This document shows positions 2,201-54,998 of a stretch of 64,000 nucleotides of DNA, piece by piece. The notes below the pieces were generated by a model. It searched no databases and had not been told where the DNA came from. It saw nothing but the letters and a program-made list of their open reading frames with translations. Numbering within the stretch: the first letter of the stretch is position 1; each line of letters opens with the position of its first letter. The position numbers and the translations under genes were made by a program. This DNA is from an uncultured Gammaproteobacteria bacterium (lineage in GTDB: Bacteria > Patescibacteriota > Patescibacteriia > Magasanikbacterales > GWA2-37-8), in contig CAZWKA010000003.1 in NCBI GenBank assembly GCA_964634875.1, positions 16,591 through 80,590 on the forward strand, given 5' to 3'.

Positions 2201-2282
2201 GGGCAGTTACCCAAGCGGTCAACGGGGGCAGACTGTAAATCTGCTGGCTCAGCCTTCCAAGGTTCGAATCCTTGACTGCCCA
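2201..2282 (+). tRNA. tRNA-Tyr (anticodon GTA), type II long variable arm
   Basis: Acceptor stem GGGCAGT/ACTGCCC, anticodon loop CTGTAAA, T-arm GGTTCGAATCC. Close to E. coli tRNA-Tyr. Confidence 0.8.
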
Positions 2283-2317
2283 CACCGGTGAGTGGTGAAA
2301 ATACTCATGTATACCAT

Positions 2318-2393
2318 GCCGCCTTAGCTCAGCTGGTAGAGCAGCTGTTTTGTAAACAGCAGGTCGTCGGTCCGAGCCCGACAGGCGGCTCCA
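2318..2393 (+). tRNA. tRNA-Thr (anticodon TGT), CCA encoded
   Basis: Acceptor GCCGCCT/AGGCGGC, anticodon stem GCTGT/ACAGC with loop TTTGTAA, T-loop GGTCCGAGCCC. Confidence 0.8.
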
Positions 2394-2412
2394 ATAACAA
2401 TTGAGAAAGAAT

Positions 2413-2485
2413 GCCGATGTAGCTCAGTTGGTAGAGCACGTCCATGGTAAGGACGGGGTCAGCGGTTCAAATCCGCTCATCGGCT
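2413..2485 (+). tRNA. tRNA-Thr (anticodon GGT)
   Basis: Acceptor GCCGATG/CATCGGC, anticodon stem CGTCC/GGACG with loop ATGGTAA, T-arm GGTTCAAATCC. Resembles E. coli thrT. Confidence 0.8.
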
Positions 2486-2494
2486 CTAAAAAAT

Positions 2495-2531
2495 AACCGG
2501 TTCTTAAGATAAGAGCCGGTTATTTTATTTT
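2495..2531 (+). terminator. rho-independent terminator after the tRNA cluster
   Basis: Stem AACCGGTTCTT / AAGAGCCGGTT followed by a T-rich run. Confidence 0.7.
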
Positions 2532-2614: not shown

Positions 2615-5572
2615 ATGATCTTACATCAAAATAAAAAGGAGGGGTCATTTATTCGTTTTCACAAAAGACATTTTCTTGTTGCGTTTATAGTTATGGTAGT
2701 GAGCACAGTATTTGTTACTGGGCTCGTTTTATTTTTTGTTAATTTATATCCACCTGGTTTGTCGCGCGCGGCTACTGTCGTTTGGACAGGTGAGACAGGG
2801 GATGGTTTGTGGCAAACGGCAGGCAACTGGAGCGGATCAGCTGTCCCGACTGCTTCTGATGATGTGACTATAGCTTCAACCAGTACTTTAATTACGGTGA
2901 CACTTTCATCGGGGCAAACGGCTAATTTTAGCACCCTAACTATTGGCGGGGAAACGTTATTGACTAATTTTATCCTCGAAGGGAATATTGGAACCGGTGG
3001 AAGTATTACAATTGATAACTCTGGTGTATTGGAGCAAAAGAATGCTGTTACTCAAACAATTAGTGGTACGCTGACTATAAAGGGCGGGGCAACTGGCGGT
3101 AAGTTAACACATACAGGAAATGCTTCTTCACAGAGTTATATTTTGAATTTTGTAGCTCAAGCTATTGATGTGCAAGCGGGTGGAGTCATTGATATTACGG
3201 GAAAAGGTTATGGAGATGCCAATTCTGGCCCCGGTCCTGGTATCGGTCAATCCAATGAGGGTGTTATTGAGTCAGGTGGTGGGGCGCACGGCGGTAATGG
3301 TGGAACGTATAATTTTTCACAAGGCGGCATTGGTTATTGTTTGGTAACCGATATTACAACCATGGGTTCGCCAGGTGGGCAGGCTGGTGGAGAGACTTTT
3401 AACGACCCAAGGCATGGTGCGGGAGGTGGGCTTGCTCTGCTGCGCTCGATCGCGACTACAACATTAAATGGTTCAATTATTGCTTCAGGTGCCGCAGGTA
3501 CTACTCTTGCAGACAACACGTATAGCGGAGGTGGGGGTGGAGGTGGTTTGCGAATTACTGCTGGCGGTGCGATTGCAGGTACTCCAACCGCAGTAACAGC
3601 TAACGGGGGCGCTGGTTTTGGTGAAGGTTCGGCCGCTGGCGGAGGTGGTTGTATTCAGTTGTCCTACCATACAACAAACTCAATTACCGCTCTTGGAGAC
3701 ATGGTAACGGTTGATGGCGGTGCTCAGTTTGTAGGTGCAAATCCGACTGCTGGTTTATTTTACGCTGCCCAAACTAATGCAGTCCCAACTACTACTGTTA
3801 CCAGCGTTGTTCAATCAACGACTTCCACAGTTACTTTTGTCGCCAGTGTCACTGATGTTGATTTAGACGTAACAAGCCTTGTGGTAGAACATTCGCTCGA
3901 CGGCGCAAACTGGTCGTCTTCTACGCTGGGTAGTGTTACCCCAAGCCAGGGGTCGGTCAGCACTTCAACCGGCCGTATTTCTGGTATTGCCACCGACACT
4001 GCTACTACGACACTAACAGCAGTTTGGAATATCGGGATCGACGCGCCGACAACAACAACCTCGACTGCCTACATGCGTTTTGTTCCAACCGACGGCGCAC
4101 TTACCGGCGCTGTGGCCACTTCGACAGTTTTTTCTATTGTAACGGTTCCCCCGAGTGATTTAAATATTACGAGCGTGACAGACCATGAAGCGAATTTTAC
4201 CTGGTCAACCCAGGATGTTTTTACAAGTTATGCGCTGCAAGATGTTGCTAATGCCGTTTCATCCGGATGGGTTACCGGGGATAGTCATCAGATTACTGAT
4301 TTAACCTGTGGAGTTGCATATACTTTTGCTATTAAAGGTAAAAGCAGTGCGGATGTTGAAACTGGTCTTTCCGCTAGTATTGCGACCACAACACTTAATT
4401 GTGGTCCAGCCTTTTCGGCGAGCGGGGGTGGTGGGGGTGGTGGAGCAAGTGATTCAGGAAGCTCTGCTCCAGCGCCGAGCCCAAGCACAGACGCGCCACA
4501 GCAACTGGTAACTGTACCTTTATTTTTACAACCACCGGTAACTCCTGAAGTGCTATTAAATGTACCTCTTACGCCCGTGCCGCAGGACAGGCTTTTGCAA
4601 CCGCTTACGGTTTTGCCGCCACCAACGACACCGTTGGTTCCAGACACCGTAGTATTGCCGCCACCGTTGCCTCCTCAGGAAGTGCAGTTGATTTTAAACC
4701 AGCAAGAACAAATAGCGCAAATCATTACCCAATCCGCCCAGGTCATTGCTCCTGTACTACAAGTAACCACGCCGGTAACGGTCGGTGCAGCGACGCACAG
4801 TGTAACGGTTTCCGCTGCTTCCGCATCGAGTATTACATTTGTTCTTCGTTCTAATCCAATTACCCTTACTCTACAGGCCGGTGAGCAGCGTGAGGCTGAT
4901 ACAGACGGGGATAGTGTGACAGATGTCTTGGTGTCATATAAAGGCTTGTTGGAAGGAAAACCGCTTTTGGCTTTAGCGCCGCTGATTAATCAGGATGAAG
5001 CTGTGGGTCCGTTTACCATCAATACCGGTGCCCTGCAGACAAAATCAACCGATGTGTTGCTTACCTTTGGTGTGAAGGATATTCGTTCGATAGAAATTTC
5101 TAATACACCAGATTTTGTTTCGAGCGTGCACTTTGTTGCTGCTTCTTCAACGCGCTGGAGGCTTCCTACTGAGGCTGGTGTCGCTACGGTGTATGCCCGT
5201 ATTTATAAAAATAATGATACGGTCGTTGGGGTGAGTGATAGTATCTTTGTCCGACCAGAAGCTTTGCCTAATTGGTCGGCTGTGATCCCGAAACCCGTTG
5301 CAACCTCCACCGTACCGGTACAAAAAGCGAAGCCAGTACCTGTGGTGTTTAAAACTCCCCTGAGAGCTGGTAGTGTGGGGAATGAAGTTCGCATGCTTCA
5401 AGTAATTCTTAAAGCGCAGGGGTTATTTCCCGTGCAGCAAGCCGTAACCGGTTACTTTGGTCAGTTTACGTACCAAGGGGTTGTCGCTCTGCAAAAGAAA
5501 AATTCCCTTACCCCTATCGGTCAGGTTGGGCCGCAGACGAGGGCACTTCTGAATGTTTTATCTGCTGAGTAA
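2615..5572 (+). CDS. large cell-surface protein with N-terminal TM anchor, Gly-rich beta-helix-like repeats, FN3-like segments, Pro-rich linker and C-terminal peptidoglycan-binding domain
   Basis: 985 aa. N-terminal hydrophobic helix, GGxGGxG runs and a PxxP-rich region. The C-terminal GNEVRMLQVILKAQG...GYFGQFTYQGVVALQK fits the PG_binding_1 pattern. Confidence 0.6.
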   Translation: MILHQNKKEGSFIRFHKRHFLVAFIVMVVSTVFVTGLVLFFVNLYPPGLSRAATVVWTGETGDGLWQTAGNWSGSAVPTASDDVTIASTSTLITVTLSSGQTANFSTLTIGGETLLTNFILEGNIGTGGSITIDNSGVLEQKNAVTQTISGTLTIKGGATGGKLTHTGNASSQSYILNFVAQAIDVQAGGVIDITGKGYGDANSGPGPGIGQSNEGVIESGGGAHGGNGGTYNFSQGGIGYCLVTDITTMGSPGGQAGGETFNDPRHGAGGGLALLRSIATTTLNGSIIASGAAGTTLADNTYSGGGGGGGLRITAGGAIAGTPTAVTANGGAGFGEGSAAGGGGCIQLSYHTTNSITALGDMVTVDGGAQFVGANPTAGLFYAAQTNAVPTTTVTSVVQSTTSTVTFVASVTDVDLDVTSLVVEHSLDGANWSSSTLGSVTPSQGSVSTSTGRISGIATDTATTTLTAVWNIGIDAPTTTTSTAYMRFVPTDGALTGAVATSTVFSIVTVPPSDLNITSVTDHEANFTWSTQDVFTSYALQDVANAVSSGWVTGDSHQITDLTCGVAYTFAIKGKSSADVETGLSASIATTTLNCGPAFSASGGGGGGGASDSGSSAPAPSPSTDAPQQLVTVPLFLQPPVTPEVLLNVPLTPVPQDRLLQPLTVLPPPTTPLVPDTVVLPPPLPPQEVQLILNQQEQIAQIITQSAQVIAPVLQVTTPVTVGAATHSVTVSAASASSITFVLRSNPITLTLQAGEQREADTDGDSVTDVLVSYKGLLEGKPLLALAPLINQDEAVGPFTINTGALQTKSTDVLLTFGVKDIRSIEISNTPDFVSSVHFVAASSTRWRLPTEAGVATVYARIYKNNDTVVGVSDSIFVRPEALPNWSAVIPKPVATSTVPVQKAKPVPVVFKTPLRAGSVGNEVRMLQVILKAQGLFPVQQAVTGYFGQFTYQGVVALQKKNSLTPIGQVGPQTRALLNVLSAE

Positions 5573-5611: not shown

Positions 5612-5681
5612 GATGCTCCACTTCGTCCTATCGCTCATACGAACTAATTCGTAGGAATGATAGGGTGGGCGAAGTGGGGTG

Positions 5682-5714
5682 GGGGCTCCGCGCGTTTTTG
5701 GCGCGCGGAGCCCC
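5682..5714. repeat. perfect 13-bp GC-rich hairpin at the left edge of a high-GC islet
   Basis: GGGGCTCCGCGCG-tttttgg-CGCGCGGAGCCCC. It is preceded by a second long imperfect inverted repeat at 5617-5680. Confidence 0.7.
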
Positions 5715-5726
5715 TGGATTGGCTTT

Positions 5727-6380
5727 CTAGCGGCGCCAGAAAGCCAGAAACATGAGGGCGAAGGGTGCGGTGCAGACCGCGCCGAGGAACACGAACGCGA
5801 CGAACCGTGCTCTCGGCGAGATCCGGCTGACGCGCCGGATGGCCTGGGTGCGGCGCTCCTGCTCGGGGATCAGCGTATATGGCTGCGTGCCGTTGCTGAT
5901 GGGGTGCCGCTGCGTGCCCTGCTCTGTGATGGGGAACAGGCCGGTCTCAGCCCCACGCAGAACCGCGAGCTGCATGGTTCCCTCTCTGGACAGGTCGAGT
6001 GTCGGGATCTCTTTGGTGTCGTCCTCGTCGCCCATGCTCTGCACCTCTTTGGTGGCGGTGAGCTGGCGCTCGAACGCGGCCAGGCGCAGGTTCAGCAGGG
6101 TCTTGTCCGGATCCTCCTCCAGTTCGTCAAGGAGGGGGGTGAGAGCCTGAAGCGGGGTGACAGACGAGGCCGGCGGCGGCACCTCAAGCGGCCGAGCCAA
6201 CAGTGTCAGCGCGTAGGCCTCCTGGTGGAAGCCGCGCGGGTTCGTGGGCGTACGCTCATCCCCGAAGAGAGGGGGTGTGCGGCTCGAGGGCGGGCTGTCG
6301 GCAGAGCTCTGCGGCGGGCACGACGGGTCAATCAGGGGCTTGGCGAAAAGGGGCGGAGTCAGACTGCTGTGCGTCTTCAT
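5727..6380 (-). CDS. proline-rich protein with C-terminal transmembrane tail anchor, encoded in a high-GC islet
   Basis: ATG at 6380 has GAGGT 6 nt upstream. The C-terminal stretch FVAFVFLGAVCTAPFALMFLAFW is hydrophobic. GC is visibly far above the flanks, and the opposite strand also shows long ORFs, as expected for GC-rich DNA. Confidence 0.45.
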   Translation of the reverse strand: MKTHSSLTPPLFAKPLIDPSCPPQSSADSPPSSRTPPLFGDERTPTNPRGFHQEAYALTLLARPLEVPPPASSVTPLQALTPLLDELEEDPDKTLLNLRLAAFERQLTATKEVQSMGDEDDTKEIPTLDLSREGTMQLAVLRGAETGLFPITEQGTQRHPISNGTQPYTLIPEQERRTQAIRRVSRISPRARFVAFVFLGAVCTAPFALMFLAFWRR

Positions 6381-6420
6381 GACTGTTACCTCGCTGGGTG
6401 GCAAAAAAGGTCGGGCATTG

Positions 6421-6469
6421 TAGCGGTGAAACAGTCTGATTAATAGCTTTATTAGACTGTTTCACCGCT
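6421..6469. repeat. 17-18 bp inverted repeat (hairpin) at the right edge of the high-GC islet
   Basis: AGCGGTGAAACAGTCTGAT ... ATTAGACTGTTTCACCGCT with one mismatch. Confidence 0.7.
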
Positions 6470-6685
6470 AGAACACTTTTTTAAGGAACAAAAAAACCTG
6501 CGGCTTTCGCCTACAGGATGCTCCATCCTAGCACATTTTTAGGGTTTTGTCAAGGGTGTTTTGGGGTATTTTGGCTAATTTTAGCTATTTTTATAGTTTT
6601 AGAGTAGTTCAAATACCACTATTTACTGTTGCGGGCAAACATTTTTAAGCAGTATCTTTTCTTGAGGCAAGAAGTTATTAGTGGT

Positions 6686-10739: not shown

Positions 10740-11006
10740 CTAGAAACCGTACGATTGTCGGGTGCGGTTGAAGTAGGGTTTGGGAAAGCTAAAGCTGTAG
10801 TAGAATGAATCATCGGGGTAGACGACGCGGTACCAGTTTTGGGTAGGGCGAGTAGGTGGGTGCCAGGGGTCTGCCGGTTTACTGTAATAGTAAAACTGGG
10901 TCGATCCGTTGATGAGGACAGCTTGGGCTGGGGCAGCCAATGCGCCCGAAATGCCGAGAAATAGCGCGAAGCCAAGGGCGGTGGCTATAAGGGTATTTTT
11001 TGTCAT
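10740..11006 (-). CDS. small secreted Tyr-rich protein
   Basis: ATG at 11006. Signal peptide MTKNTLIATALGFALFLGISGALAAPAQA. About 88 aa. Confidence 0.4.
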   Translation of the reverse strand: MTKNTLIATALGFALFLGISGALAAPAQAVLINGSTQFYYYSKPADPWHPPTRPTQNWYRVVYPDDSFYYSFSFPKPYFNRTRQSYGF

Positions 11007-11137
11007 AGAGAGTAAATCAGGTTTGTGTGTGAGTATAGCACACCAGGCTGAAGGTACAAACACTACAACCGCCAGGTGTAGTGGCGGTTGCGATGTCTCT
11101 ATGGCCTTCGGATTAGCGAAGGATATGTGCAGTATAT

Positions 11138-11150
11138 GCAACTAAGTTGC
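11138..11150. promoter_or_regulatory. palindrome GCAACTAAGTTGC (copy 1 of an operator-like repeat)
   Basis: Part of the ~27-bp motif GCAACTAAGTTGCGTTTGTCAAATAGG. Sits between two minus-strand small-protein genes. Confidence 0.5.
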
Positions 11151-11179
11151 GTTTGTCAAATAGGAGTTGTGGAAAACTG

Positions 11180-11545
11180 TTAATAACTAGAGTACCTGCC
11201 GTAGTATACGACGGGTGTAGGGCGGTAGCTGTGGTACGTAGGGTAATTGCGCGTTTGCCACGAGCGTAGCGGAGCATATAAACGGGTTGGTGTGGTACGC
11301 AAATAGGCGGGGGCAGGCGGGGGCACGTAACCGCGCTTGGTGACAGGCTGGTTGGGTATCGTGGTGGGGGAGGCATGGTCGGCAGCATCATGTCCATCTG
11401 CTGCATGTTCTGTTTCTTCGTTGTCGTCGTGGCTGTGCCCCGGTTCAACTATGGTCCAGGCCTGGGCTGATTCAGTTGGTCTGAGAATGGCGAGGCTAAG
11501 CGCCAGAAAGAAAAAAATTCCTATCCACGCGTGTTTGTTTTTCAT
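11180..11545 (-). CDS. small secreted His/Asp-rich protein (possible metal-binding)
   Basis: ATG at 11545. Signal peptide MKNKHAWIGIFFFLALSLAIL. Acidic His-rich segment HSHDDNEETEHAADGHDAADH. Confidence 0.4.
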   Translation of the reverse strand: MKNKHAWIGIFFFLALSLAILRPTESAQAWTIVEPGHSHDDNEETEHAADGHDAADHASPTTIPNQPVTKRGYVPPPAPAYLRTTPTRLYAPLRSWQTRNYPTYHSYRPTPVVYYGRYSSY

Positions 11546-11637
11546 AGGTAGTAGATTACATATATACAGTACTCTTGTAAGCCTCATGGTTTGGGGCGCA
11601 CAAGAGTGCTCGAGGCCGACGATCCGACCTCGGTTTG

Positions 11638-12309
11638 TTATTCGTCTGCTGGTTCGTCGATCAGTGTGCTGGGTGCTCGGGGAACCAAATCTAGCTGAAG
11701 GTACTGTGGCGACGCGGGTTGTTTTGGTTCTGTTTCCCGCTTGAGAGCGAATTTCCACCCCAGCATGAGCGGTACCAAGTGCCATTCCCAAGGGTGCCCG
11801 TTCGCCAAGTTGAGCGGTGCCAGCATGGCTGCTTCGCTGCCGATGACAAAACCTTTGTACCGGAAACTGATGCCGCCGAGCAGCGGGCCGAGTTTGACTT
11901 CGGTCTGGCTCTGGTAGGGCTTTTCAATTTCTAGCACGATTCCAGGCAGGTGCAGTTCGAGCGACCAATGCTCGCTAAGGTGGATATCAAGCCCGCCGGT
12001 AAGGTGAATGTCGCCACCCGCCCGGTCGCCACCAATTGCCGCGTGCAGGCCGGCAACAATGCCAAAGTCGACGCTGCCCGCTTCGGCGAAAGGGAATTCA
12101 AACTCGAAACAGAGCGGGGTCATGAGTTGGAGGATAAATCCGCTTCCACCCTTGAGGCCAGTTGTGGCCGTGCGGGAACTATCGTATTTGGTGGGGGAGG
12201 CTACCGCTTGGCCGGAAAATATTGGGCCACCGCACCACAAGGCTGAGGGGGATTCGGCCCTCGCAACAATGCTCCAGGCAAGGAGCGTGACGATAACGAG
12301 GTAGCGCAC
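11638..12309 (-). CDS. secreted beta-strand-rich protein (porin/OmpW-like pattern)
   Basis: GTG start at 12309 with AAGGAGA 5 nt upstream. Signal peptide. Alternating hydrophobic pattern and a C-terminal aromatic residue. Confidence 0.4.
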   Translation of the reverse strand: MRYLVIVTLLAWSIVARAESPSALWCGGPIFSGQAVASPTKYDSSRTATTGLKGGSGFILQLMTPLCFEFEFPFAEAGSVDFGIVAGLHAAIGGDRAGGDIHLTGGLDIHLSEHWSLELHLPGIVLEIEKPYQSQTEVKLGPLLGGISFRYKGFVIGSEAAMLAPLNLANGHPWEWHLVPLMLGWKFALKRETEPKQPASPQYLQLDLVPRAPSTLIDEPADE

Positions 12310-20834: not shown

Positions 20835-21422
20835 ATGAAAAAAGCAATTTTTGCTGTAGTTCTGGGTATTGTAGTTATGGGCGCTGGATGCAGTGCTGCA
20901 AGTAACCCTGACCAGTCGAATGTTTCGGGAAATGGAGAAACTAAAACATACGAAAATTCTTTGTATAGTTTTCAATTTAAATACCCCGCCAATGCTCAAG
21001 AATCTGTTTTGACTCTCGGAAATTTAGATGAAAAATTAGTACAGTTTGAGTTACCTGTTGACCAGTACCCCTCAACCAATCTGGCTGAAGCTCAATTCAT
21101 TGTTACAGCCCTTCCCCTCGATGAATTGGACAGCTGTCTGTCTTTGGCTTTGCCAGATGAGTCGGTAAAATTTGATACTGCCAACAAAATAGTTATCAAT
21201 GGTCAGGATTTCTATTCTGCCACGGTTATTGATCAAGACAGCGCTGATTTGTATGAATCTCGAATTTACAGGGCGTTTAATGACTATGTCTGTTTTGAGT
21301 TTGAAGAAGCAATTCACACTACGAATGTAGAAGAAGGTGTAACTGAAGTCGACAAATCATCTGTCTGGCAGTCGCTCGAGGAAATGCTCCAGTCGGTTAC
21401 TTTCGACCGTCCTAACGTTTAA
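20835..21422 (+). CDS. lipoprotein of unknown function
   Basis: Signal peptide with lipobox VMGAGC. Acidic. Confidence 0.5.
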   Translation: MKKAIFAVVLGIVVMGAGCSAASNPDQSNVSGNGETKTYENSLYSFQFKYPANAQESVLTLGNLDEKLVQFELPVDQYPSTNLAEAQFIVTALPLDELDSCLSLALPDESVKFDTANKIVINGQDFYSATVIDQDSADLYESRIYRAFNDYVCFEFEEAIHTTNVEEGVTEVDKSSVWQSLEEMLQSVTFDRPNV

Positions 21423-23586: not shown

Positions 23587-24936
23587 TTGTTAGGTATGAA
23601 ACAGGATTTTTTTACAAATATTTGTTTACGTTTACTAGGGGTGAGCCTGTTAATTCTAGGTACTTTATTTTTTTGTGTTAATACCCGCGCTGCAGCCTCC
23701 CTTGTTCCGATTGAAGCTGATGATTTTGGTTTTTTGACTGTGTACAGTAGTTCAACCGTAACTGTTGCTGACGATGCTGCGACAGTTTTATATATAGTTG
23801 ATGGCGCCACTGTGGTCACGACTACACTGAGTATTAATGGTCAGGTAGATTTATATTTAACGCCCGGTGAGTATCAGTTGAGCCAGCAACCAAGTGATGG
23901 TTACACGCCAGTTTTTTTTGTTGATAGTGAAGATCCCGAAACTCCGCAGTGTGATACGTCCGGACGCATACTCGTCCCTGCTGAGCAGGGAGGGGTTCGT
24001 TTGGTCTGTAATATTTTACAAAGCATCTACGTTCCTACAGAAGAGGAAGTTCCGCCTTTTGTCCCAACCACCAGCACACTCCATATCAACCAGCTCGTTA
24101 TCAACGACAATGGTGACAACAAAACAGTTATAGATTTTCCTTTTGATGTGGCGATTGACGGGGTAACAACGACTTACCCTGGGGCGAGTACAACAACAAT
24201 TGTAAACCTCTCTGCAACGAGCACGTATAGTGTTGATCTTGCTGTGCCTGGCAGTTATGCTCGAACGCTTAGCGGGGATTGTTCGGGTACGAGTTCCGAG
24301 GTCGGCACTCTTGTAACGTGTACTATTGCTCTCGATGATCAGGAATTATTTTTGACCGATGTGCGGGCGGAAGCGGTTGATACGACATCAGTAAAAGTTA
24401 TGTGGACAACGAGTCATGCTGCTACGAGCCGGGTGATTTATGACGTGGTGAATCACGATGCCACGACTACGCCTCCATTGTATGGTTATGCTTTTACGAG
24501 TAATGAGCAGGGCGAGTTTGTTACAAATCACGAAGTGATTATCGCCGGTCTTGCTCCAGATACGCTTTATTATTTTCGCGCCGTCTCGCACGGCTCGCCA
24601 GAAGTAGTTAGTAACGAGGTGTCTGTTAAAACTATCGCCGCGACTGGCGGTGGACAGAATTTTAGCACGGGTGCGGGCGGGGGAGGGGTTGTTGCCCCGC
24701 CGCCAACAGCACCCACACCTGCTCCGGCACCAGTCCCAAGCGCACCGCAAGCAGTTTTAGGTGAAAAGATAGAAGTCACAGCTCCGCTGCCGAGCCCTAC
24801 TCCACAAGCCGTACTCGGTTTTCAAACTTTACCAGTAACTGGTGGGCGCGCGCCTTCACGTTTACCTGATGTAGCGGTGGACTGTATGTTATTAGGTGGC
24901 CTGCTCGTACTTCGAACCAGGCTCCTCGCTGAGTAG
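23587..24936 (+). CDS. LPXTG-anchored cell-surface protein (sortase substrate)
   Basis: Signal peptide. LPVTGG followed by a hydrophobic helix and an RTRLLAE tail at the C-terminus. Contains an FN3-like segment. Confidence 0.75.
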   Translation: MLGMKQDFFTNICLRLLGVSLLILGTLFFCVNTRAAASLVPIEADDFGFLTVYSSSTVTVADDAATVLYIVDGATVVTTTLSINGQVDLYLTPGEYQLSQQPSDGYTPVFFVDSEDPETPQCDTSGRILVPAEQGGVRLVCNILQSIYVPTEEEVPPFVPTTSTLHINQLVINDNGDNKTVIDFPFDVAIDGVTTTYPGASTTTIVNLSATSTYSVDLAVPGSYARTLSGDCSGTSSEVGTLVTCTIALDDQELFLTDVRAEAVDTTSVKVMWTTSHAATSRVIYDVVNHDATTTPPLYGYAFTSNEQGEFVTNHEVIIAGLAPDTLYYFRAVSHGSPEVVSNEVSVKTIAATGGGQNFSTGAGGGGVVAPPPTAPTPAPAPVPSAPQAVLGEKIEVTAPLPSPTPQAVLGFQTLPVTGGRAPSRLPDVAVDCMLLGGLLVLRTRLLAE

Positions 24937-25083: not shown

Positions 25084-26361
25084 ATGAAGCGTGCGCTTAA
25101 AAAATATTTTATCCCCCACGCGGAGAATAAGTACCACCCGCATTTTTTGCATGCCAAACGTGCGTTGGCATATTCGACTTTTTTTATTTGGATTAAAGCA
25201 TTTTTAGTTGGCTTAGTTTTGGCTATTCCGCTGCCTGCTTTTGTTGCGCCCGATGTCTTATCGGGCGAGCAGGCTCGTCTGGTGCAGCTGACAAATACGC
25301 TGCGAGCACGAGAAAACCGCGAACCACTGGTTGTTCGACCTCTGCTCAACCGTTCGAGCGCGCTCAAGGCGGATGATATGGCGGTGCAGCAGTATTTTAG
25401 CCACAACGGTCCCGACGACCATAATCTGAAATTTTTTCTTAAGGCTGCCGGATATGGTTACCGCACAGCCGGAGAAAATTTAGCCATGGGTTTTTTCAGC
25501 GCCGATGAAGTGCTTTCGGCGTGGGTAAAAAGTCCGACGCATTATAAAAATTTAATTGACAGTGAATACCTGGAGCTTGGCACAAGCATGGTGGCTGGTT
25601 TGTATAATAATATTCCCACTGCTTATGCCGTAGCGCATTTTGGTACACCGCCGATTACGGCTCCAAGCGCTGCCTCGTCAACTCCGGTAGTGCCTGCTAT
25701 CGCTGAGCCTGTAGTCACTGATCCGGTCATCTCAGTACCTCCAAAAAGCGTCCCAGCCCTCCGGGTGCTAAGCCAGAAGAGTGGTGTTGCTGTAGTAAAA
25801 ACTCCGGCTCCTGTAGAAATCATTCCGCCTCGATTGGCCTATGACGCTGATCGTTCGCAAGTGCTCTGGAAAGAAGCTGAAGGCGGAGTGCTGGTTCAGA
25901 TCCAGGCATATATCCAAGGTTCCGTAAAAACTGCTCAGGTAGAGATTGCTGGCCATACTGTAACTCTTGAGCCAGAGCTAAGTAGGAGCGAACAAGATAT
26001 GAGGCGCTACGCTGGATCACAGGTTTTACCGCTTAGTAAGTCGGAGTTGTTCCGAGTGGTGGTGCCGCCAACTCTTTCCGTAATTGGTGAGGGTGGGGAA
26101 ATAATTACCGGTTCTGTGGCCTGGCATGCTCCACCGATTATTACACCAAGCTCGTGGCAGCGCTATACTGTTGCCCGCCGGAGCATTCCTTTGGTTGCAA
26201 GTATTGTCGATTTTTCAAACAGCGTCTATATTGGTTTTTTGGCTTTATTCTTAGCGGCCTTTGTTGCTTTGGTTGTTGTGGAGGCTCGCAAACAACACCC
26301 TCATGTTATTGTCCAAACCCTGGGGGTGATTGCGTTGCTCCTGGTGCTTATCATAACCTAG
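25084..26361 (+). CDS. CAP/SCP (PR-1-like) domain protein with N- and C-terminal TM segments
   Basis: CAP-domain motifs (GENLA..., HYKNLID...). C-terminal hydrophobic anchor. Confidence 0.65.
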   Translation: MKRALKKYFIPHAENKYHPHFLHAKRALAYSTFFIWIKAFLVGLVLAIPLPAFVAPDVLSGEQARLVQLTNTLRARENREPLVVRPLLNRSSALKADDMAVQQYFSHNGPDDHNLKFFLKAAGYGYRTAGENLAMGFFSADEVLSAWVKSPTHYKNLIDSEYLELGTSMVAGLYNNIPTAYAVAHFGTPPITAPSAASSTPVVPAIAEPVVTDPVISVPPKSVPALRVLSQKSGVAVVKTPAPVEIIPPRLAYDADRSQVLWKEAEGGVLVQIQAYIQGSVKTAQVEIAGHTVTLEPELSRSEQDMRRYAGSQVLPLSKSELFRVVVPPTLSVIGEGGEIITGSVAWHAPPIITPSSWQRYTVARRSIPLVASIVDFSNSVYIGFLALFLAAFVALVVVEARKQHPHVIVQTLGVIALLLVLIIT

Positions 26362-34349: not shown

Positions 34350-36398
34350 ATGCCTGCTAAACCTCAGCATTTCAGCAAGACGCCGACGCATTCCCAGGTA
34401 AAATCGAGACTGGCCGGTATTTTAATACTCGTTGTTTTTTGTGCAGTTGTGGCTGCGCCAGCCTACGCCAATAAAGGTATTGATTGGGTAAACAACACCG
34501 CCAACCTCGGGTTGCCCCGATTACCGGATAACGGTTACAACCTTGGTCTTGATCTCCAGGGTGGCGCACACCTCGTGTACCAAGCGAAAACAGATGCTAT
34601 TGCCGAAGCTGATAAAGCTAGTTCGGTTGAGGGTGTGCGTGATGTTATCGAGCGTCGTGTCCGTGGTGGTTTGGGTGTATCAGAACCGCTCGTCCAGACG
34701 ACTAAGGTTGGGAGTGATTACCGCATCATTGTTGAACTGCCTGGCGTGACGGATGTTAATCAGGCGATTAAGAGTATTGGCGAAACACCTGTTCTAGAAT
34801 TTAAAGAAGAAAATACTGCCCCACCACGGGAATTGACTGCAGCCGAAACAAAACAGCTCACTGATTTTAATAAAGCCGCTGATACAAAAGCGAAAGAAGC
34901 CCTTCGGGCAGTGCAGCGCGGCATGAACTTTGCTGAAGCCGCGGCTAAGTATAGTGAGGATGAAAAAACTAAGACCGCCGGCGGAGATCTAGGTTTTATT
35001 GATGAGACCGTCTATCCAGAATTATTTGCCTGGGCTAAAACCCACAAAGTAAATGAAGTCGGTAATGCTTTGGTTACGACGCCGACAGGTCTGAATGTCG
35101 TAAAAAAAGTAGCAGAAAAAGAGGGTGAAAAAGAAGTTACAGCTTCGCACTTGCTGATTTGTTTTGCCGGTGCCACGCGCTGTGATGACGCGCAATATTC
35201 TAAGGAAGATGCTCTTAAGAAAATCCAGGAAATTAAAGCAACGATTACTCCAAAAAACTTTGCCGAAAAGGCAAAAGAATTTTCGACTGAACCCGGGGCT
35301 GACCAGAGCGGTGGCGTACTTGGCACTTTTAAAAAAGGAGCTTTGGTAAAACCGTTTGAGGATGCTGTTTGGGATCAGAAAGTTGATACCATTTCTGAGC
35401 CAGTGGAAACGGAGTTTGGTTACCATCTTATCCATAAGACCGGTGAGGCAATCGCTAAGCAGTACCAGGTTGCTCGCATTTTGGTAGCCACTAAAACCAA
35501 GACAGATATCGTCCCACCAGCAGAACAGTGGAAATCAAGCGGCCTTACCGGTAAGCAGCTCGAACGAGCCGAGGTTACCCAAAACCAAATTACCGGAGAT
35601 ATCCAGGTAAGCCTTAATTTTGATGATGAAGGTTCTAAGTTATTTGCTGATATTACCGGCCGTAATGTGGGGAAAGCAGTAGCTGTTTTCCTTGACGGTG
35701 AAATTATCAGTGCCCCGGTTGTTAACGCGGCAATTACCACGGGGAGTGCGGTAATTACGGGTGGGTTTAGCTTGACTGACGCTAAGCTTTTGGCGCAGCG
35801 CCTTAATTCAGGTGCGTTGCCGGTACCAGTTGAGCTCCTCAGCCAGCAAACCGTGGACGCTACGCTTGGTGCTGATTCGCTTGATAAGAGTTTCCGTGCT
35901 GGTGTCTTTGGTTTGATTGCAGTTATGGTCTTTATGATTCTTTATTACCGCTTACCAGGCCTTTTGTCCGTACTATCCTTGGCTTTCTACGCCCTCCTGA
36001 GTTTGGCGGTATTCAAATTGATGGGTGTAACATTGACGCTCTCTGGTATTGCTGGGTTTATTCTTTCCATCGGTATGGCGGTTGACGCTAATGTGCTTGT
36101 ATTCGAGCGTCTTAAAGAAGAGTTGGCTGCGGGTCGAACGCTTAAGTCAGCTACTGAAGAAGCCTTTATTCGTTCGTGGCCTTCAATTCGTGATAGTCAT
36201 ATTACCGCCCTCATCAGCTGTGTCTTCTTGATTTGGTTTGGTACTGGGTTTATCCAAGGTTTTGCCGTTATCTTGGGAATTGGTACTTTAATTAACCTGT
36301 TTACCGCCATCACGGTAACGAGGACAGTCATGCGGTCGGTTTTCCCTTTCCTTAATGAAAAAGGAAATATTCTCTTTTTAGGATATAAAAAAGATTAA
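34350..36398 (+). CDS. secD: protein translocase subunit SecD with two inserted parvulin-type PPIase domains
   Basis: The SecD N-terminal TM helix and C-terminal 6-TM RND-like domain are present. Two parvulin signatures are inserted in the periplasmic domain: AGGDLGFIDETV and SGGVLGTFKKGALVKPFEDAVW. Confidence 0.8.
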   Translation: MPAKPQHFSKTPTHSQVKSRLAGILILVVFCAVVAAPAYANKGIDWVNNTANLGLPRLPDNGYNLGLDLQGGAHLVYQAKTDAIAEADKASSVEGVRDVIERRVRGGLGVSEPLVQTTKVGSDYRIIVELPGVTDVNQAIKSIGETPVLEFKEENTAPPRELTAAETKQLTDFNKAADTKAKEALRAVQRGMNFAEAAAKYSEDEKTKTAGGDLGFIDETVYPELFAWAKTHKVNEVGNALVTTPTGLNVVKKVAEKEGEKEVTASHLLICFAGATRCDDAQYSKEDALKKIQEIKATITPKNFAEKAKEFSTEPGADQSGGVLGTFKKGALVKPFEDAVWDQKVDTISEPVETEFGYHLIHKTGEAIAKQYQVARILVATKTKTDIVPPAEQWKSSGLTGKQLERAEVTQNQITGDIQVSLNFDDEGSKLFADITGRNVGKAVAVFLDGEIISAPVVNAAITTGSAVITGGFSLTDAKLLAQRLNSGALPVPVELLSQQTVDATLGADSLDKSFRAGVFGLIAVMVFMILYYRLPGLLSVLSLAFYALLSLAVFKLMGVTLTLSGIAGFILSIGMAVDANVLVFERLKEELAAGRTLKSATEEAFIRSWPSIRDSHITALISCVFLIWFGTGFIQGFAVILGIGTLINLFTAITVTRTVMRSVFPFLNEKGNILFLGYKKD

Positions 36399-48942: not shown

Positions 48943-51498
48943 TTATAACGTAGCTTCGCTGAAATCTATATCATCAGGTTTGCTGGAACCAAGCTGGGCA
49001 CGATCCATGATTTCGGCATTGACGATCTCGCGCGGACGGCCATATTTGAGGCGGGAAAGTTCTTTGATGGCAGCCGCTAGTTCCTTGTTACCTTCTTTGG
49101 GACCGTATGTCAACATATTAAAAGGTTTGGCAGCAGTATTGTCGATAAGAAGTTTAATATACGCAGTATATTGTTCGACGTTAATCAGGTCGTACGCACC
49201 AAATACAGGCGCGAATTCCTTGGCGAGAACTTCGGCGTCTTCAACACCGATACGGAAGGAAACAAGTGTGCCCGCGTTACCAAGCACGGCGTCGCGCACT
49301 GTGGTTTTACCTTTGTTGTCTTCAAGTTGCTTCATGTACTGGTGGGCAATGATTAACTCTAAGCGATACTTGCGAGCTTCGGATAAAATGGTGGCAATCG
49401 AGTCAGTAATAAAGTTTTGGAACTCATCGATGTAGAGGAAAAAGTCGTTGCGCTGGTCTTCTGGAAGCGAGGCGCGCTCCAGGGCAGCCATCTGAAGTTT
49501 GCTTACAATAATCATGCCCATCAGGTTGGCATTAATTTCACCCACTAAACCTTTGGCTAGGTTAACGAGGAGAATTTTTTTACCATCCATCACTTCGCGG
49601 AAATTAAAGCCGGAATGTGATTGGCCGATGATGTTACGAACCATTTCGTTTTCAACAAAACGTCCGACTTTGGAGATGAGATAGCCGAGCATTTCTGATT
49701 TGTGGAAGTCAGATGTTTTAGCCATTTCTTTATCCCAATAAGCGCGCACCACCGGATCTTTCAGTTTTTTCTTCCACTGATTTACAAAGGTGTCGTCGCT
49801 GAACATGCGGGGAATTTCAGCAATAGTGCCCGGGTTTTCAAGGTCCGACATGAGGGTTAACATGACGTTGCGCATGTTATGCTCAAACATTGGACCGATC
49901 ATCGACGGATCAGTAACCATTTTATAAAAAATGGAGATCATTTCTTGAGTGGCAAAGTCTTTTTGTTCCTCGCTTCTGACCTCGAGCATGTTCAGGCCGA
50001 TCGGGCGTTCAATGTCTGAGGGGTTGAAATAAATAACATCGTCGGCACGCTCTTTGGGGACGTGTTGCAGTACGTATTCGACAAAGTCACCGTGGGGATC
50101 GATAACACAGACCCCCTCACCGTTTTGGATGTCTTGAACTGCCAGGTTTTGGATAAAGACCGATTTACCGCCACCCGATTTACCGATGACATAGAGGTGT
50201 CGCCGGCGGTCGGAAACTTTCATTTTTACGAGTGTTTCTTCGCCACGGTACATGGCGCGTCCTAAGAGGAGGCCTTCTTTAGGCATGTTGGCTGGCGGCG
50301 GCGCTTTACGGGCTCCGAGCCAGTTAATGTGAGGGGTTTCGGTGTGAGGGACGGGAAGGTGCCAAAAACTAGCCATCTCCTCGGTATTCATAACCATGTA
50401 AAAACCTTCGCGCATGGAGCGATAGATCGACTCTTGGATCAGTGCGGTTTGGCGACGGGGGATGGCTGCGCCAAACGAATTGCCGTAACGGTAAATATTG
50501 TACTGGCTGAAGGAGTTGATGATGTTCTCAAGATTCAATTGGGCTTTTTCTTTGCTAGCAGCTGAGCTGATGAGGCGGATTGTAACTTCAAGTCCGCCGT
50601 GGCTGATTTTTTCTTCCATGTTTTTGACCATCTCTTCTTCCATTTGGGTGAGGTGGTATTTTTCACTGGCTGGTTTACTTGGGTCGTGCTTTTTTGGGAA
50701 AAGCAATTTGCCCAACTTCCCAATTTGGTGGAAAAAAGCGATGCGGTTGGCAACATCCTCAAATTTTTGGCCTTCGCGGATTTCGCGGATGATGTGCACA
50801 GCTTCATGGCGCCATTTTCCGCTGGCTGGACGGACGACATATTGGATGATAGCACCTTCATCTTCAGCGATTTTGCTCAGCGGGTTGAGGATGGAAAGAA
50901 GCGGGTCAGCGTCCATTTTTTTGTAGGTTTTGAAAGGAAAAATTGATTTGTGTTTGAACCACAAATAAGCTCCAACAACATGGCTCGTTGGCTTAAAAAT
51001 GTTATAATCGCTTTCCTCGGTAATTTCGGCGTGTGGATACTGGGCATGGATTTGTTGTTCGACCAGGTCGCGGATTTTATCAGGTACGGCAACGTAAAAT
51101 GAGATTTTGTTTTCTTTTACGACAATTTCAAAAGCAATATGGTCATTGCGTCCGCGCAGCCAAGGGCCCAGTCCTTTTTCTTTGTGCAAACCGGCGATGG
51201 AAGAAAAGAAAGTGTCAGCAACGGCGATTTGTTCACGGACCTGGTTGATATTGTCTTCATTGCCACCTTCTTGTTTTTCACTTTTTCTTTCTTTGGGGAC
51301 ACGGATAAGGAAGATGGTGCGGTGGAATGCCTTGCCTGCTTTATTTTTAGCGTGCAAAACCCCTCGAGCCGTAAACAAAATAGCCAGGAAAATTCCGACT
51401 ATGATAAGGCAGAAGAAAATAGCCGCGCTAATCGGGCTCGCTAGAGCGGCGTTGGCCGCTTCCCTTAGAAAATCAATAAAAGGGGTCAAGAGTTCCAT
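48943..51498 (-). CDS. membrane-anchored FtsK/HerA-superfamily ATPase, VirB4/TraC-like (N-terminal TM + ~420-aa domain + P-loop NTPase)
   Basis: Walker A VIGKSGGGKS, Walker B FFLYIDEF, then EARKYRLELIIAHQY (RKxG...TQ-like). Confidence 0.55.
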   Translation of the reverse strand: MELLTPFIDFLREAANAALASPISAAIFFCLIIVGIFLAILFTARGVLHAKNKAGKAFHRTIFLIRVPKERKSEKQEGGNEDNINQVREQIAVADTFFSSIAGLHKEKGLGPWLRGRNDHIAFEIVVKENKISFYVAVPDKIRDLVEQQIHAQYPHAEITEESDYNIFKPTSHVVGAYLWFKHKSIFPFKTYKKMDADPLLSILNPLSKIAEDEGAIIQYVVRPASGKWRHEAVHIIREIREGQKFEDVANRIAFFHQIGKLGKLLFPKKHDPSKPASEKYHLTQMEEEMVKNMEEKISHGGLEVTIRLISSAASKEKAQLNLENIINSFSQYNIYRYGNSFGAAIPRRQTALIQESIYRSMREGFYMVMNTEEMASFWHLPVPHTETPHINWLGARKAPPPANMPKEGLLLGRAMYRGEETLVKMKVSDRRRHLYVIGKSGGGKSVFIQNLAVQDIQNGEGVCVIDPHGDFVEYVLQHVPKERADDVIYFNPSDIERPIGLNMLEVRSEEQKDFATQEMISIFYKMVTDPSMIGPMFEHNMRNVMLTLMSDLENPGTIAEIPRMFSDDTFVNQWKKKLKDPVVRAYWDKEMAKTSDFHKSEMLGYLISKVGRFVENEMVRNIIGQSHSGFNFREVMDGKKILLVNLAKGLVGEINANLMGMIIVSKLQMAALERASLPEDQRNDFFLYIDEFQNFITDSIATILSEARKYRLELIIAHQYMKQLEDNKGKTTVRDAVLGNAGTLVSFRIGVEDAEVLAKEFAPVFGAYDLINVEQYTAYIKLLIDNTAAKPFNMLTYGPKEGNKELAAAIKELSRLKYGRPREIVNAEIMDRAQLGSSKPDDIDFSEATL

Positions 51499-53822: not shown

Positions 53823-54998
53823 ATGTTTTTTTCCAAGCCAAAGTCTTTTTTAGGCATTGATTTTGGAGCTGGCGGCATTAAGCTTGTTGAGCTCAAACAA
53901 GAAAAGAATCGTCCGGTTCTTTTTACGTACGCAATTGCTCTTGAATCACAGGACATCCATCGTGTTTTGAAGCCGGGCGCTGAACGAACGCTTGGGGATC
54001 TGTTGAAAGAAAAAACCTTACCGGAAACGCGTCCGGCGAGCCAGGTTCAGACTGAAACAGTTGCCGCCCCAGAAGACGGCCTCGATGCGGCGAAGATTGC
54101 ACGTTATGCAGCGCTTATCCGATCGGTTTGCAAACAGGCGCGTACCGTGAGCACGACGGCGGTAGTCAGTTTGCCGGTGTCAGCAGTGTTCCACACTATT
54201 GTTAATTTGCCGATTGTTAAAAAGGATGAGATTGATGCTCTTTTAAAAGCCGAGATACGCAAATTACTGCCGTATAAGCTGGAAGACACCGCCCTTGATT
54301 ATGAGCTTTTGCCGCACGCACCTGATGCTAAGGTGCAGACGGTTTTAGTCAATGCGGTTCCGAATAGCATGGTTTTGTTTTTTTCCAAGGTTTTTCAGCA
54401 GGCTGGTCTAAAGTTACATGCTTTAGAACCTGAATCAGTAGCTCTGGCTCGTTCGCTTATTGGCCGCGATACAGCGCTCACAATGATTATCGATATTGGT
54501 GCGGAGCGAACAAATTTTTTTATCATTGATCAGACCGTCCCGATTACGCACCATAGCATCGAGCTCGGGGGCAACAGAATAAATAAAAACCTGGCGAACA
54601 TGCTCGGAGTTGATGATGGTGTGGTAGAACGCCTAAAAGAAGACCTTTTTAATTACCTGCTCCGGTACCCTGAAACAGCTGGTATTGGTCGTGAAAAGTT
54701 TTTAGCATTGTTTACGACTGTGGTTGATCCGATAATGAAAGAGATTGCCTATAGTTTCAACTTGTATCTGCGGCAAACCTGGAATGAAGCCAAGCGTCCG
54801 GAAAAAATTATTTTGACTGGTGGCGGCGGGTTATTTCCTTTTTTAGCTGATTTTATTAGTGAAACCTTTAAGATCAAATGCTATATTGGTGACCCTTGGG
54901 GACGCGTGGTCTATCCCGACACTTTAAAGCCCGTGCTGCGTGATATCGGGCCACGTATGGCGGTTGCGATTGGCCTTGCGCTCAAGAATCTGGTATAA
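53823..54998 (+). CDS. pilM: type IV pilus assembly protein PilM (actin-like ATPase fold)
   Basis: N-terminal LGIDFGAGGIKLVEL. Overall actin/Hsp70-like pattern with a C-terminal ILTGGGG. Confidence 0.75.
   Translation: MFFSKPKSFLGIDFGAGGIKLVELKQEKNRPVLFTYAIALESQDIHRVLKPGAERTLGDLLKEKTLPETRPASQVQTETVAAPEDGLDAAKIARYAALIRSVCKQARTVSTTAVVSLPVSAVFHTIVNLPIVKKDEIDALLKAEIRKLLPYKLEDTALDYELLPHAPDAKVQTVLVNAVPNSMVLFFSKVFQQAGLKLHALEPESVALARSLIGRDTALTMIIDIGAERTNFFIIDQTVPITHHSIELGGNRINKNLANMLGVDDGVVERLKEDLFNYLLRYPETAGIGREKFLALFTTVVDPIMKEIAYSFNLYLRQTWNEAKRPEKIILTGGGGLFPFLADFISETFKIKCYIGDPWGRVVYPDTLKPVLRDIGPRMAVAIGLALKNLV

Follow-up and report, generated by a model that had tools for sequence, protein, structure and literature searches.

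A putative wall-tethered surface fibre with a beta-helix head encoded in a Magasanikbacteria-like Patescibacteria genome

The window analysed here is a 64-kb stretch of contig CAZWKA010000003.1, and its largest open reading frame (ORF) encodes a predicted surface protein of 985 residues; the runner-up is SecA with 947 residues. An earlier note, made from the sequence alone, had placed this ORF at 2615-5572 as the largest gene of the window, directly after a tRNA cluster, and the ORF scan, ARAGORN and Rfam agree. The ATG of the surface gene follows the end of the tRNA cluster after 128 nt. The terminator-like hairpin that closes the cluster marks the upstream limit of the gene's own transcription unit, and the stem of the intrinsic terminator downstream is kept by compensatory changes in the related locus L016. 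Since the gene is enclosed by these two elements, it looks like a separate, monocistronic transcription unit. Public assemblies contain one identical protein and orthologues of 57-64% identity with conserved neighbours. We conclude from these matches that the 985-residue ORF is a real gene. Within the window, no paralogue of the protein was found. The coordinates of the features are collected in Table 1.

Just upstream of the gene, an 18-codon ORF (MIKMVLLKNLCIVYTIYT followed by a stop codon, 2554-2610) ends 4 nt ahead of the main ATG. It has the Shine-Dalgarno-like sequence GGGAGGTG 6 nt upstream, whereas the main ATG is not preceded by such a sequence. Because the region upstream of the main ATG is weakly conserved in the related loci L002 and L016, the short ORF may be due to chance. 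In the same region, the 32-nt stretch AAAAATCTTTGTATAGTGTATACTATATATAC (2575-2606) has a second copy of 78% identity at 20953-20984, 18 kb away. The sequence GGTGTATACT is also retained 5' of the L016 orthologue and may be a shared promoter element.

The domain order of the protein was obtained from an AlphaFold2 model of the whole protein and from domain searches. Both bear out the order that had been read from the sequence before, with an N-terminal hydrophobic segment, a Gly-rich beta-helix, a fibronectin type III (FN3)-like part, a Pro-rich stalk and a PG_binding_1 domain. Gly and Thr make up 12% and 12.9% of the residues; residues 301-350 contain 19 Gly, and residues 651-700 contain 14 Pro, LPPPTTPLVPDTVVLPPPLPPQ among them. 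The protein has one hydrophobic helix, at residues about 19-45, and no second hydrophobic segment after residue 60. When residues 512-579 were compared with the Pfam fn3 model, the score of 20.8 bits (E=4.5e-4) stayed below the gathering threshold of 25. The same model matched 13 of 15 homologues at E<=0.01 (best 6.3e-12). The FN3 beta-sandwich fold was also recognised when the whole model was submitted to Foldseek, which returned tandem FN3 arrays at E about 2e-7 and a probability of 1.0; these generic arrays were the only matches of the whole model. The four cysteines of the protein fall into two intradomain pairs, 242/346 in the head and 565/596 in the FN3 domain, the latter invariant. Searches of Pfam, NCBIfam and the PDB sequences revealed no catalytic domain, and the Pfam search gave no SLH or other S-layer domain. 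The C-terminal part contains neither an LPXTG-like motif nor a hydrophobic segment, which speaks against anchoring by sortase. No lipobox cysteine follows the hydrophobic region, the first cysteine being residue 242, and this does not fit a lipoprotein processed by signal peptidase II.

Table 1. Features of the surface gene and its immediate surroundings, with positions in the window
Feature	Position	Strand	Evidence
tRNA-Tyr(GTA), tRNA-Thr(TGT), tRNA-Thr(GGT) cluster	2201..2486	+	ARAGORN, Rfam
Terminator-like hairpin and T-run closing the tRNA cluster	2490..2526	+	17-pair stem in scan
Whole ORF, 985 residues and stop codon, ATG start	2615..5572	+	Public protein P0001 is identical
Residues 1-52: basic n-region, 26-residue hydrophobic helix, PPGLSRA/A	2615..2770	+	Kyte-Doolittle, AlphaFold2 helix 12-44, motif in 81 homologues
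Residues 53-390: right-handed beta-helix head module	2771..3784	+	AlphaFold2 models (whole protein; head alone)
Residues 391-511: immunoglobulin (Ig)-like/FN3-like beta-sandwich, no Pfam match	3785..4147	+	AlphaFold2 strands, Foldseek tandem FN3 matches
Residues 512-598: fibronectin type III domain, Cys565/Cys596 pair	4148..4408	+	Pfam fn3, Foldseek, invariant Cys
Residues 599-686: disordered spacer, Gly/Ser then Pro-rich	4409..4672	+	pLDDT about 29, composition
Residues 687-880: helix 687-706, then two beta-sandwiches 707-880	4673..5254	+	AlphaFold2, alignment A4
Residues 881-914: linker			AlphaFold2
Residues about 915-985: PG_binding_1 three-helix domain, extreme C-terminus	5357..5569	+	Pfam, PDB sequence matches, AlphaFold2
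Intrinsic terminator, ATATCCACC-loop-GGTGGATAT and T7, 8 nt past the stop codon	5580..5611	+	Sequence; L016 alignment

The N-terminus has the features of a type I signal peptide, cleaved by signal peptidase I. Its n-region contains the basic residues K7, K8, R14, K17 and R18, the hydrophobic region extends from 20 to 45 and the c-region reads PPGLSRA/A (the slash marks the predicted cleavage site). The first head module directly follows the N-terminal hydrophobic segment in 100 of 144 homologues. For an analysis of the cleavage motif, 81 of these were aligned on the module's first Trp, from which the residues were counted backwards. The 7th residue before the Trp, corresponding to position -3, was A, V, S, T or G in 72 of the 81 homologues, and the 5th residue (-1) was A or G, likewise in 72 of 81. 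The 6th residue was variable and frequently basic, and Pro was enriched at the 8th to 10th residues (-4 to -6). Many homologues have an ordinary short signal peptide ahead of the module, for example VHA/ATVTW or VNA/ATVTW. The conserved -3/-1 pattern follows the signal peptidase I rule and therefore suggests cleavage after Ala52 (SRA/ATVVW). Residues 1-52 are thus probably a Sec signal peptide, the alternative being a signal anchor.

A separate model of the head, built together with 20 related copies of the module, had a pLDDT of 90.6 and a pTM of 0.91. Its first part (residues 71-197) is weakly G8-like, and the second part carries the Gly-rich turns GKGY..GPGPG..GGGAHGGNGG..GSPGG..GAGGG..GGGGGGG..GGGGC. 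Among the solved structures compared with the head model, the nearest neighbours were right-handed beta-helices of the adhesin type and not lyases. The fold-comparison scores were 14.8 for the IgA1 protease passenger, 14.5 for EtpA, 13.8 for HMW1, 13.2 for HxuA, 13.1 for Hap, 13.0 for the Lactobacillus reuteri serine-rich repeat protein (SRRP) and 12.9 for Candida Awp1, whereas lyases, tailspikes and TMEM2 scored only 9-10. The alignments to the adhesin-type helices cover about 180-200 of the 345 residues, and the likeness of the modelled head to adhesin helices (Tapirin, TpsA, autotransporter passengers, SRRP) is one of fold only. With Foldseek, the head gave nothing significant against the PDB (best E=0.5), and a profile of the head (alignment A3) had no match among the PDB sequences. 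Weak Foldseek matches to the polyglycine adhesin tips of phage gp38, with E of 5 or more, were not counted as evidence. A scan of viral_contigs for phage relatives of the head gave 600 pattern matches, none of which was confirmed.

Two family models approach the head from below their thresholds. The G8 model (PF10162) scored 10.6 bits with the whole protein and 12.9 with the module alone at a threshold of 22.9, and matched 11 of 21 related modules at E<=1 (best 1.2e-5). The NCBIfam model NF047640, built on the N-terminus of Myxococcus AgmC, scored 9 bits with the window protein at a cut-off of 275 and matched 6 of the 21 modules (best E=1.4e-8). It is the sole curated model that reaches into the Gly-rich part, and in the open-access literature we found nothing on the structure or mechanism of AgmC. 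Since both models match only below threshold, the head module is without a curated family.

In an exhaustive HMMER search, the head module nevertheless proved to be common, with 3303 representative proteins at E<=0.001, 117 of them at E<=1e-30. Among the 174 proteins collected, 136 contain near-complete copies, 298 in all, with up to 11 copies in tandem per protein. The positions conserved over these 298 copies are mainly Gly, followed by S252 (97%), Y241 (93%), H166 and N169 (90% each), Y199 (83%) and H225 (73%), and no Asp, Glu, Lys or Arg reaches a conservation of at least 50%. The core GKGY..GPG.G..GGGAHGG.GG..Y(C/G)..GS.GG is nearly invariant. The module as a whole is reused in giant surface proteins, which occur in Patescibacteria and in some further phyla. 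Over the 298 copies, a strong covariation was seen between positions 242 and 346, with C/C in 116, G-or-D/R in 110 and the mixed pair C/L in 4. This exchange as a pair fits a putative disulphide bond C242-C346, and hence an extracytoplasmic location of the head.

At the C-terminus, PG_binding_1 (PF01471) was recognised in residues 922-979 with 36.5 bits at a threshold of 23 (E=5.8e-9), covering the profile from 2 to 57 of 57. The AlphaFold2 model shows the three-helix bundle with helices at 923-934, 950-962 and 973-984 (block-mean pLDDT about 74-90), and the region matches the PDB sequences 5tv7, 4lpq, CtpB and gp144. The domain is a probable non-covalent wall tether. More than 20 other proteins end in the same combination of residues 700-890 and PG_binding_1. 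The heads in front of this cassette differ and are of a binding type, not enzymes: Laminin_G_3, a DUF5122 propeller combined with Calx-beta, NHL repeats, or parts without an assignment. The occurrence of FN3, C-module and PG_binding_1 behind varied binding-type heads fits an anchor-plus-stalk arrangement, and the cassette of FN3, beta-sandwich and PG-binding domain looks like a general platform for displaying different heads. The first of the C-terminal beta-sandwiches has an invariant D762-x-D-x-D766-x-x-x-D770 (alignment A4), a motif that resembles Ca-binding loops. For the C-module, the same alignment gave only noise in Pfam and no match in the PDB sequences.

The SecA of the window shares 70-73% identity with SecA proteins named Candidatus Magasanikbacteria or 'Patescibacteria group'. 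The loci with relatives of the surface gene were collected in a genome scan with alignment A2, used in place of alignment A1, which was too divergent. They belong mostly to Magasanikbacteria, Peregrinibacteria, Paceibacter and other Patescibacteria, and a few to metagenome-assembled genomes labelled Gammaproteobacteria and to Binatia and Halobacteriovorax. The SecA identity and the taxonomy of these loci thus point to a Magasanikbacteria-like genome of the Candidate Phyla Radiation (Patescibacteria). We assume an epibiotic lifestyle for this lineage. According to a preprint, all cultivated Patescibacteria are episymbionts, and type IV pili drive the attachment of Saccharibacteria (bioRxiv 10.1101/2024.11.25.624915).

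Orthologues of the same architecture were found in L002 (GCA_964510495.1) and L016 (a JGI metagenome), in both cases 3' of the tRNA-Thr pair and 5' of DnaJ and AHSA1. The L002 orthologue is 64% identical to the window protein overall. Its Ig-like domain (residues 391-511) is the most conserved with 85%, the head has 75% and the spacer (599-686) is the least conserved with 36%. The L016 orthologue is 57% identical overall. For the neighbouring genes, the identities between the window and L002 are 62% for TIM, 79% for the TPR protein and 34% for the DnaJ-like protein. Hypervariability of the surface protein was rejected, because its 64% is close to the 62% of the neighbouring TIM and the head has 75%. 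A diversity-generating retroelement target was rejected as well. In agreement with the earlier note, which had seen no variable repeats by eye, no direct or inverted repeat of at least 30 nt in the whole 64-kb window touches the coding region.

With the neighbouring TPR protein as the query, the same locus was retrieved from other genomes. A different picture was obtained with the close relative L019 (GCA_964540825.1), whose M16 and TPR proteins are 89% and 76% identical to those of the window. Its locus consists of the TPR gene, tRNA-Tyr/Thr/Thr, 111 nt, a DsbB gene, an ORF on the opposite strand without a Pfam match, DnaJ and AHSA1. No trace of the surface gene was found within 10 kb of the syntenic site, and no orthologue from GCA_964540825.1 was among the matches of the search for relatives in public data. 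The gene is also absent from two more distant Magasanikbacteria loci. With three of the four close genomes carrying the gene at the syntenic site and one lacking it, the gene is accessory. Such variation in presence had been expected of an adhesin. A DsbB-family gene adjoins the locus in L002 (11740-12186) and L019 (11307-11750) and not in the window, where a GC-rich block at this position leads straight into the DnaJ-like gene.

Taken together, our results make it moderately probable that the product of the gene is exported by the Sec pathway and forms a non-enzymatic fibre on the surface of a Magasanikbacteria-like Patescibacteria cell, with the stalk on the wall and the beta-helix at the tip. 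The N-terminal signal peptide would be removed after Ala52, and the C-terminal PG_binding_1 domain would hold the producer's own peptidoglycan non-covalently. The stalk would consist of the two beta-sandwiches with the Ca-site-like DxDxDxxxD, the disordered Gly/Ser/Pro spacer of roughly 90 residues, the FN3 domain and the Ig-like domain. It would raise the N-terminal beta-helix off the wall as a distal tip that binds a ligand on another cell or surface. Genes for SecA and SecD are present within the window, in support of Sec export, and the DsbB gene beside the locus in L002 and L019 is in line with an extracytoplasmic location. The ORF with its domain order and folds, the conserved cleavage motif, the cysteine pairs, the monocistronic unit and the pattern of presence and absence are computed results; export, cleavage, binding to the own wall and an adhesive role are inferred. 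A role of the 985-residue protein as an adhesin is plausible, and it may serve in attachment to a host.

The protein had been proposed before to be anchored at both ends. An uncleaved N-terminal signal anchor would keep the N-terminus in the membrane and the C-terminus at the wall, and the protein would then span or loop through the envelope without a free tip. The hydrophobic stretch of 26 residues suffices to span the membrane and was modelled as a single helix, and the same long segment is kept in the three closest orthologues. However, the c-region is a textbook one, with the small residues at -3 and -1 and the enriched Pro described above, and many homologues have short signal peptides ahead of the same module. 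In addition, a membrane-held N-terminus would bury the best-conserved 'head' deepest. Because the conserved cleavage motif favours removal of the segment, anchoring at both ends is the less likely reading, and we consider a signal anchor unlikely. The protein is probably tethered by its C-terminus only. Alternatively, the head could be a catalytic beta-helix resembling a polysaccharide lyase, a tailspike depolymerase or TMEM2, which PG_binding_1 would direct to the producer's own wall for remodelling or to the wall of the host for attack. Lyases and GH28-type enzymes rely on conserved Asp, Arg or Lys, whereas the 298 copies of the head have no conserved acidic or basic residue, which argues against an active site of the lyase or glycosidase type. 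The head also has no match to a catalytic family, and adhesin helices score 4-6 Z units above the enzymes. The anchor cassette bears lectin-like and propeller heads in other proteins and not enzymes, and the repetition of the module in tandem, up to 11 times in one protein, is more typical of structural repeats. A catalytic head is rather improbable on these grounds. The earlier note had preferred a structural fibre to an enzyme, and this preference withstood the domain searches and the fold comparison.

A structural component of the envelope, S-layer-like or wall-spacing, with a beta-helix that self-associates, appears very improbable. The gene is missing at the syntenic site of L019 with its otherwise same neighbours and from the more distant loci, which argues against an essential envelope layer, and the protein has no SLH or S-layer domain. 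Several observations also weigh against the wall-tethered fibre with an adhesive tip. Conservation is higher in the head (75%) than over the whole protein (64%), which would be atypical for the tip of a host-specific adhesin. Given the length of the hydrophobic region, cleavage after Ala52 is uncertain. PG_binding_1 is known above all for targeting enzymes to peptidoglycan, and in the window protein it could bind the wall of a partner cell instead of that of the producer. No peptidoglycan synthesis genes were seen in the window. Finally, H166, N169, Y199, H225, Y241 and S252 could belong to an active or metal site. It is doubtful that these residues make up a conserved site of the head for catalysis or for the binding of a metal or ligand; if they do, the proteins would be surface enzymes or receptors of a new class and not passive fibres.

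In function, the wall-tethered fibre would come closest to the Gram-positive wall-anchored adhesins with a beta-solenoid, the SRRPs and the tapirins, and it is not a sequence-level member of either. SRRPs are exported by an accessory Sec system and anchored by sortase through LPXTG (the entry for the binding region of the Lactobacillus reuteri protein, SRRP-BR, PDB 5nxk, bears the title 'LPXTG-motif protein'), whereas the window protein has the non-covalent PG_binding_1. Unlike in SRRP, the stalk is made of Ig/FN3 domains and a Pro-rich spacer. The tapirins of Caldicellulosiruptor (PDB 6n2c, 6n2b and 4wa0) align with 158-177 of the 345 head residues at 12-13% identity and were not significant in Foldseek. 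The solved tapirin structures have the helix as their C-terminal domain; in the window protein it is N-terminal. Moreover, the tapirins have no match for the Gly-rich turns, and their solved fragments have no PG_binding_1 tether. The helices of TpsA proteins and autotransporters (FHA 1rwr, HMW1 2odl, EtpA 8cpk, HxuA 4i84, Hap 3syj, IgA1 protease 3h09 and Ag43 7koh) have no detectable sequence similarity to the head. They belong to outer-membrane secretion systems of diderms, whereas the window protein has neither a TPS (two-partner secretion) domain nor a beta-barrel translocator. The G8 domain of PKHD1, CEMIP and TMEM2 has no counterpart to the Gly-rich second half of the head.

The closest description among Patescibacteria concerns another class. 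In parasitic Paceibacteria, extracellular proteins that have Ig-like folds as well as a peptidoglycan-binding domain are highly expressed and have been proposed for host attachment (Kuroda et al. 2024, PMC10936435). The window protein likewise combines peptidoglycan-binding and Ig-like domains. This likeness is one of description, and the available part of that report does not mention a beta-helix head. Since such proteins have already been reported there, the window protein belongs to a known, poorly characterised kind. A specialist would not be surprised, as large surface proteins with beta-helix, Ig and FN3 domains are expected in such genomes. Of some value are two points, namely the head module, which is widely reused but uncurated, and the anchor cassette that other proteins share. 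Contact with partner cells is obscure in most Patescibacteria beyond type IV pili, and the protein is a concrete candidate for it. The head (53-390) and the wall tether (905-985) are separable, and defining the head family would improve the annotation of many 'hypothetical' giant proteins.

Directly 3' of the surface gene, the window contains the GC-rich block (5612-6560) with a GC content of 0.59-0.61, compared to about 0.45-0.50 around it. Long ORFs overlap there on both strands. L016 (about 10960-12000, up to 0.75) and L002 (about 11000-11600) are GC-rich at the same position. The minus-strand ORFs of the three blocks have no detectable similarity to each other; that of the window is Pro-rich with a hydrophobic C-terminal tail. 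The flanks of the block are conserved between the window and L016, and this conservation includes a long hairpin (about 5617-5680). A promoter-like TTGACA-17-TAGGAT (6553..6525), two conserved hairpins, GAGGT and an ATG (MKT...) follow one another on the minus strand of the conserved flanks. Rfam gave nothing at the gathering threshold for the block.

Further genes of the window concern export and the cell surface. A plus-strand ORF (34350-36398) encodes a SecD-PPIase fusion of 682 residues, in which matches to PpiC-type rotamases (residues about 249-363) lie between the matches to the SecD P1 N-terminal part and the P1 head. An ATPase of 851 residues resembling type IV secretion coupling proteins (TrwB/TraG-D family matches) is encoded at 48943-51498 on the minus strand. 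A PilM-like type IV pilus assembly protein is encoded 2.3 kb from it at 53823-54998 on the plus strand, and both are candidates for further cell-surface machinery. Two adjacent plus-strand ORFs, at 23587-24936 and 25084-26361, have partial matches, one to Pur_ac_phosph_N and the other to the CAP/cysteine-rich secretory family, and may encode further exported proteins.

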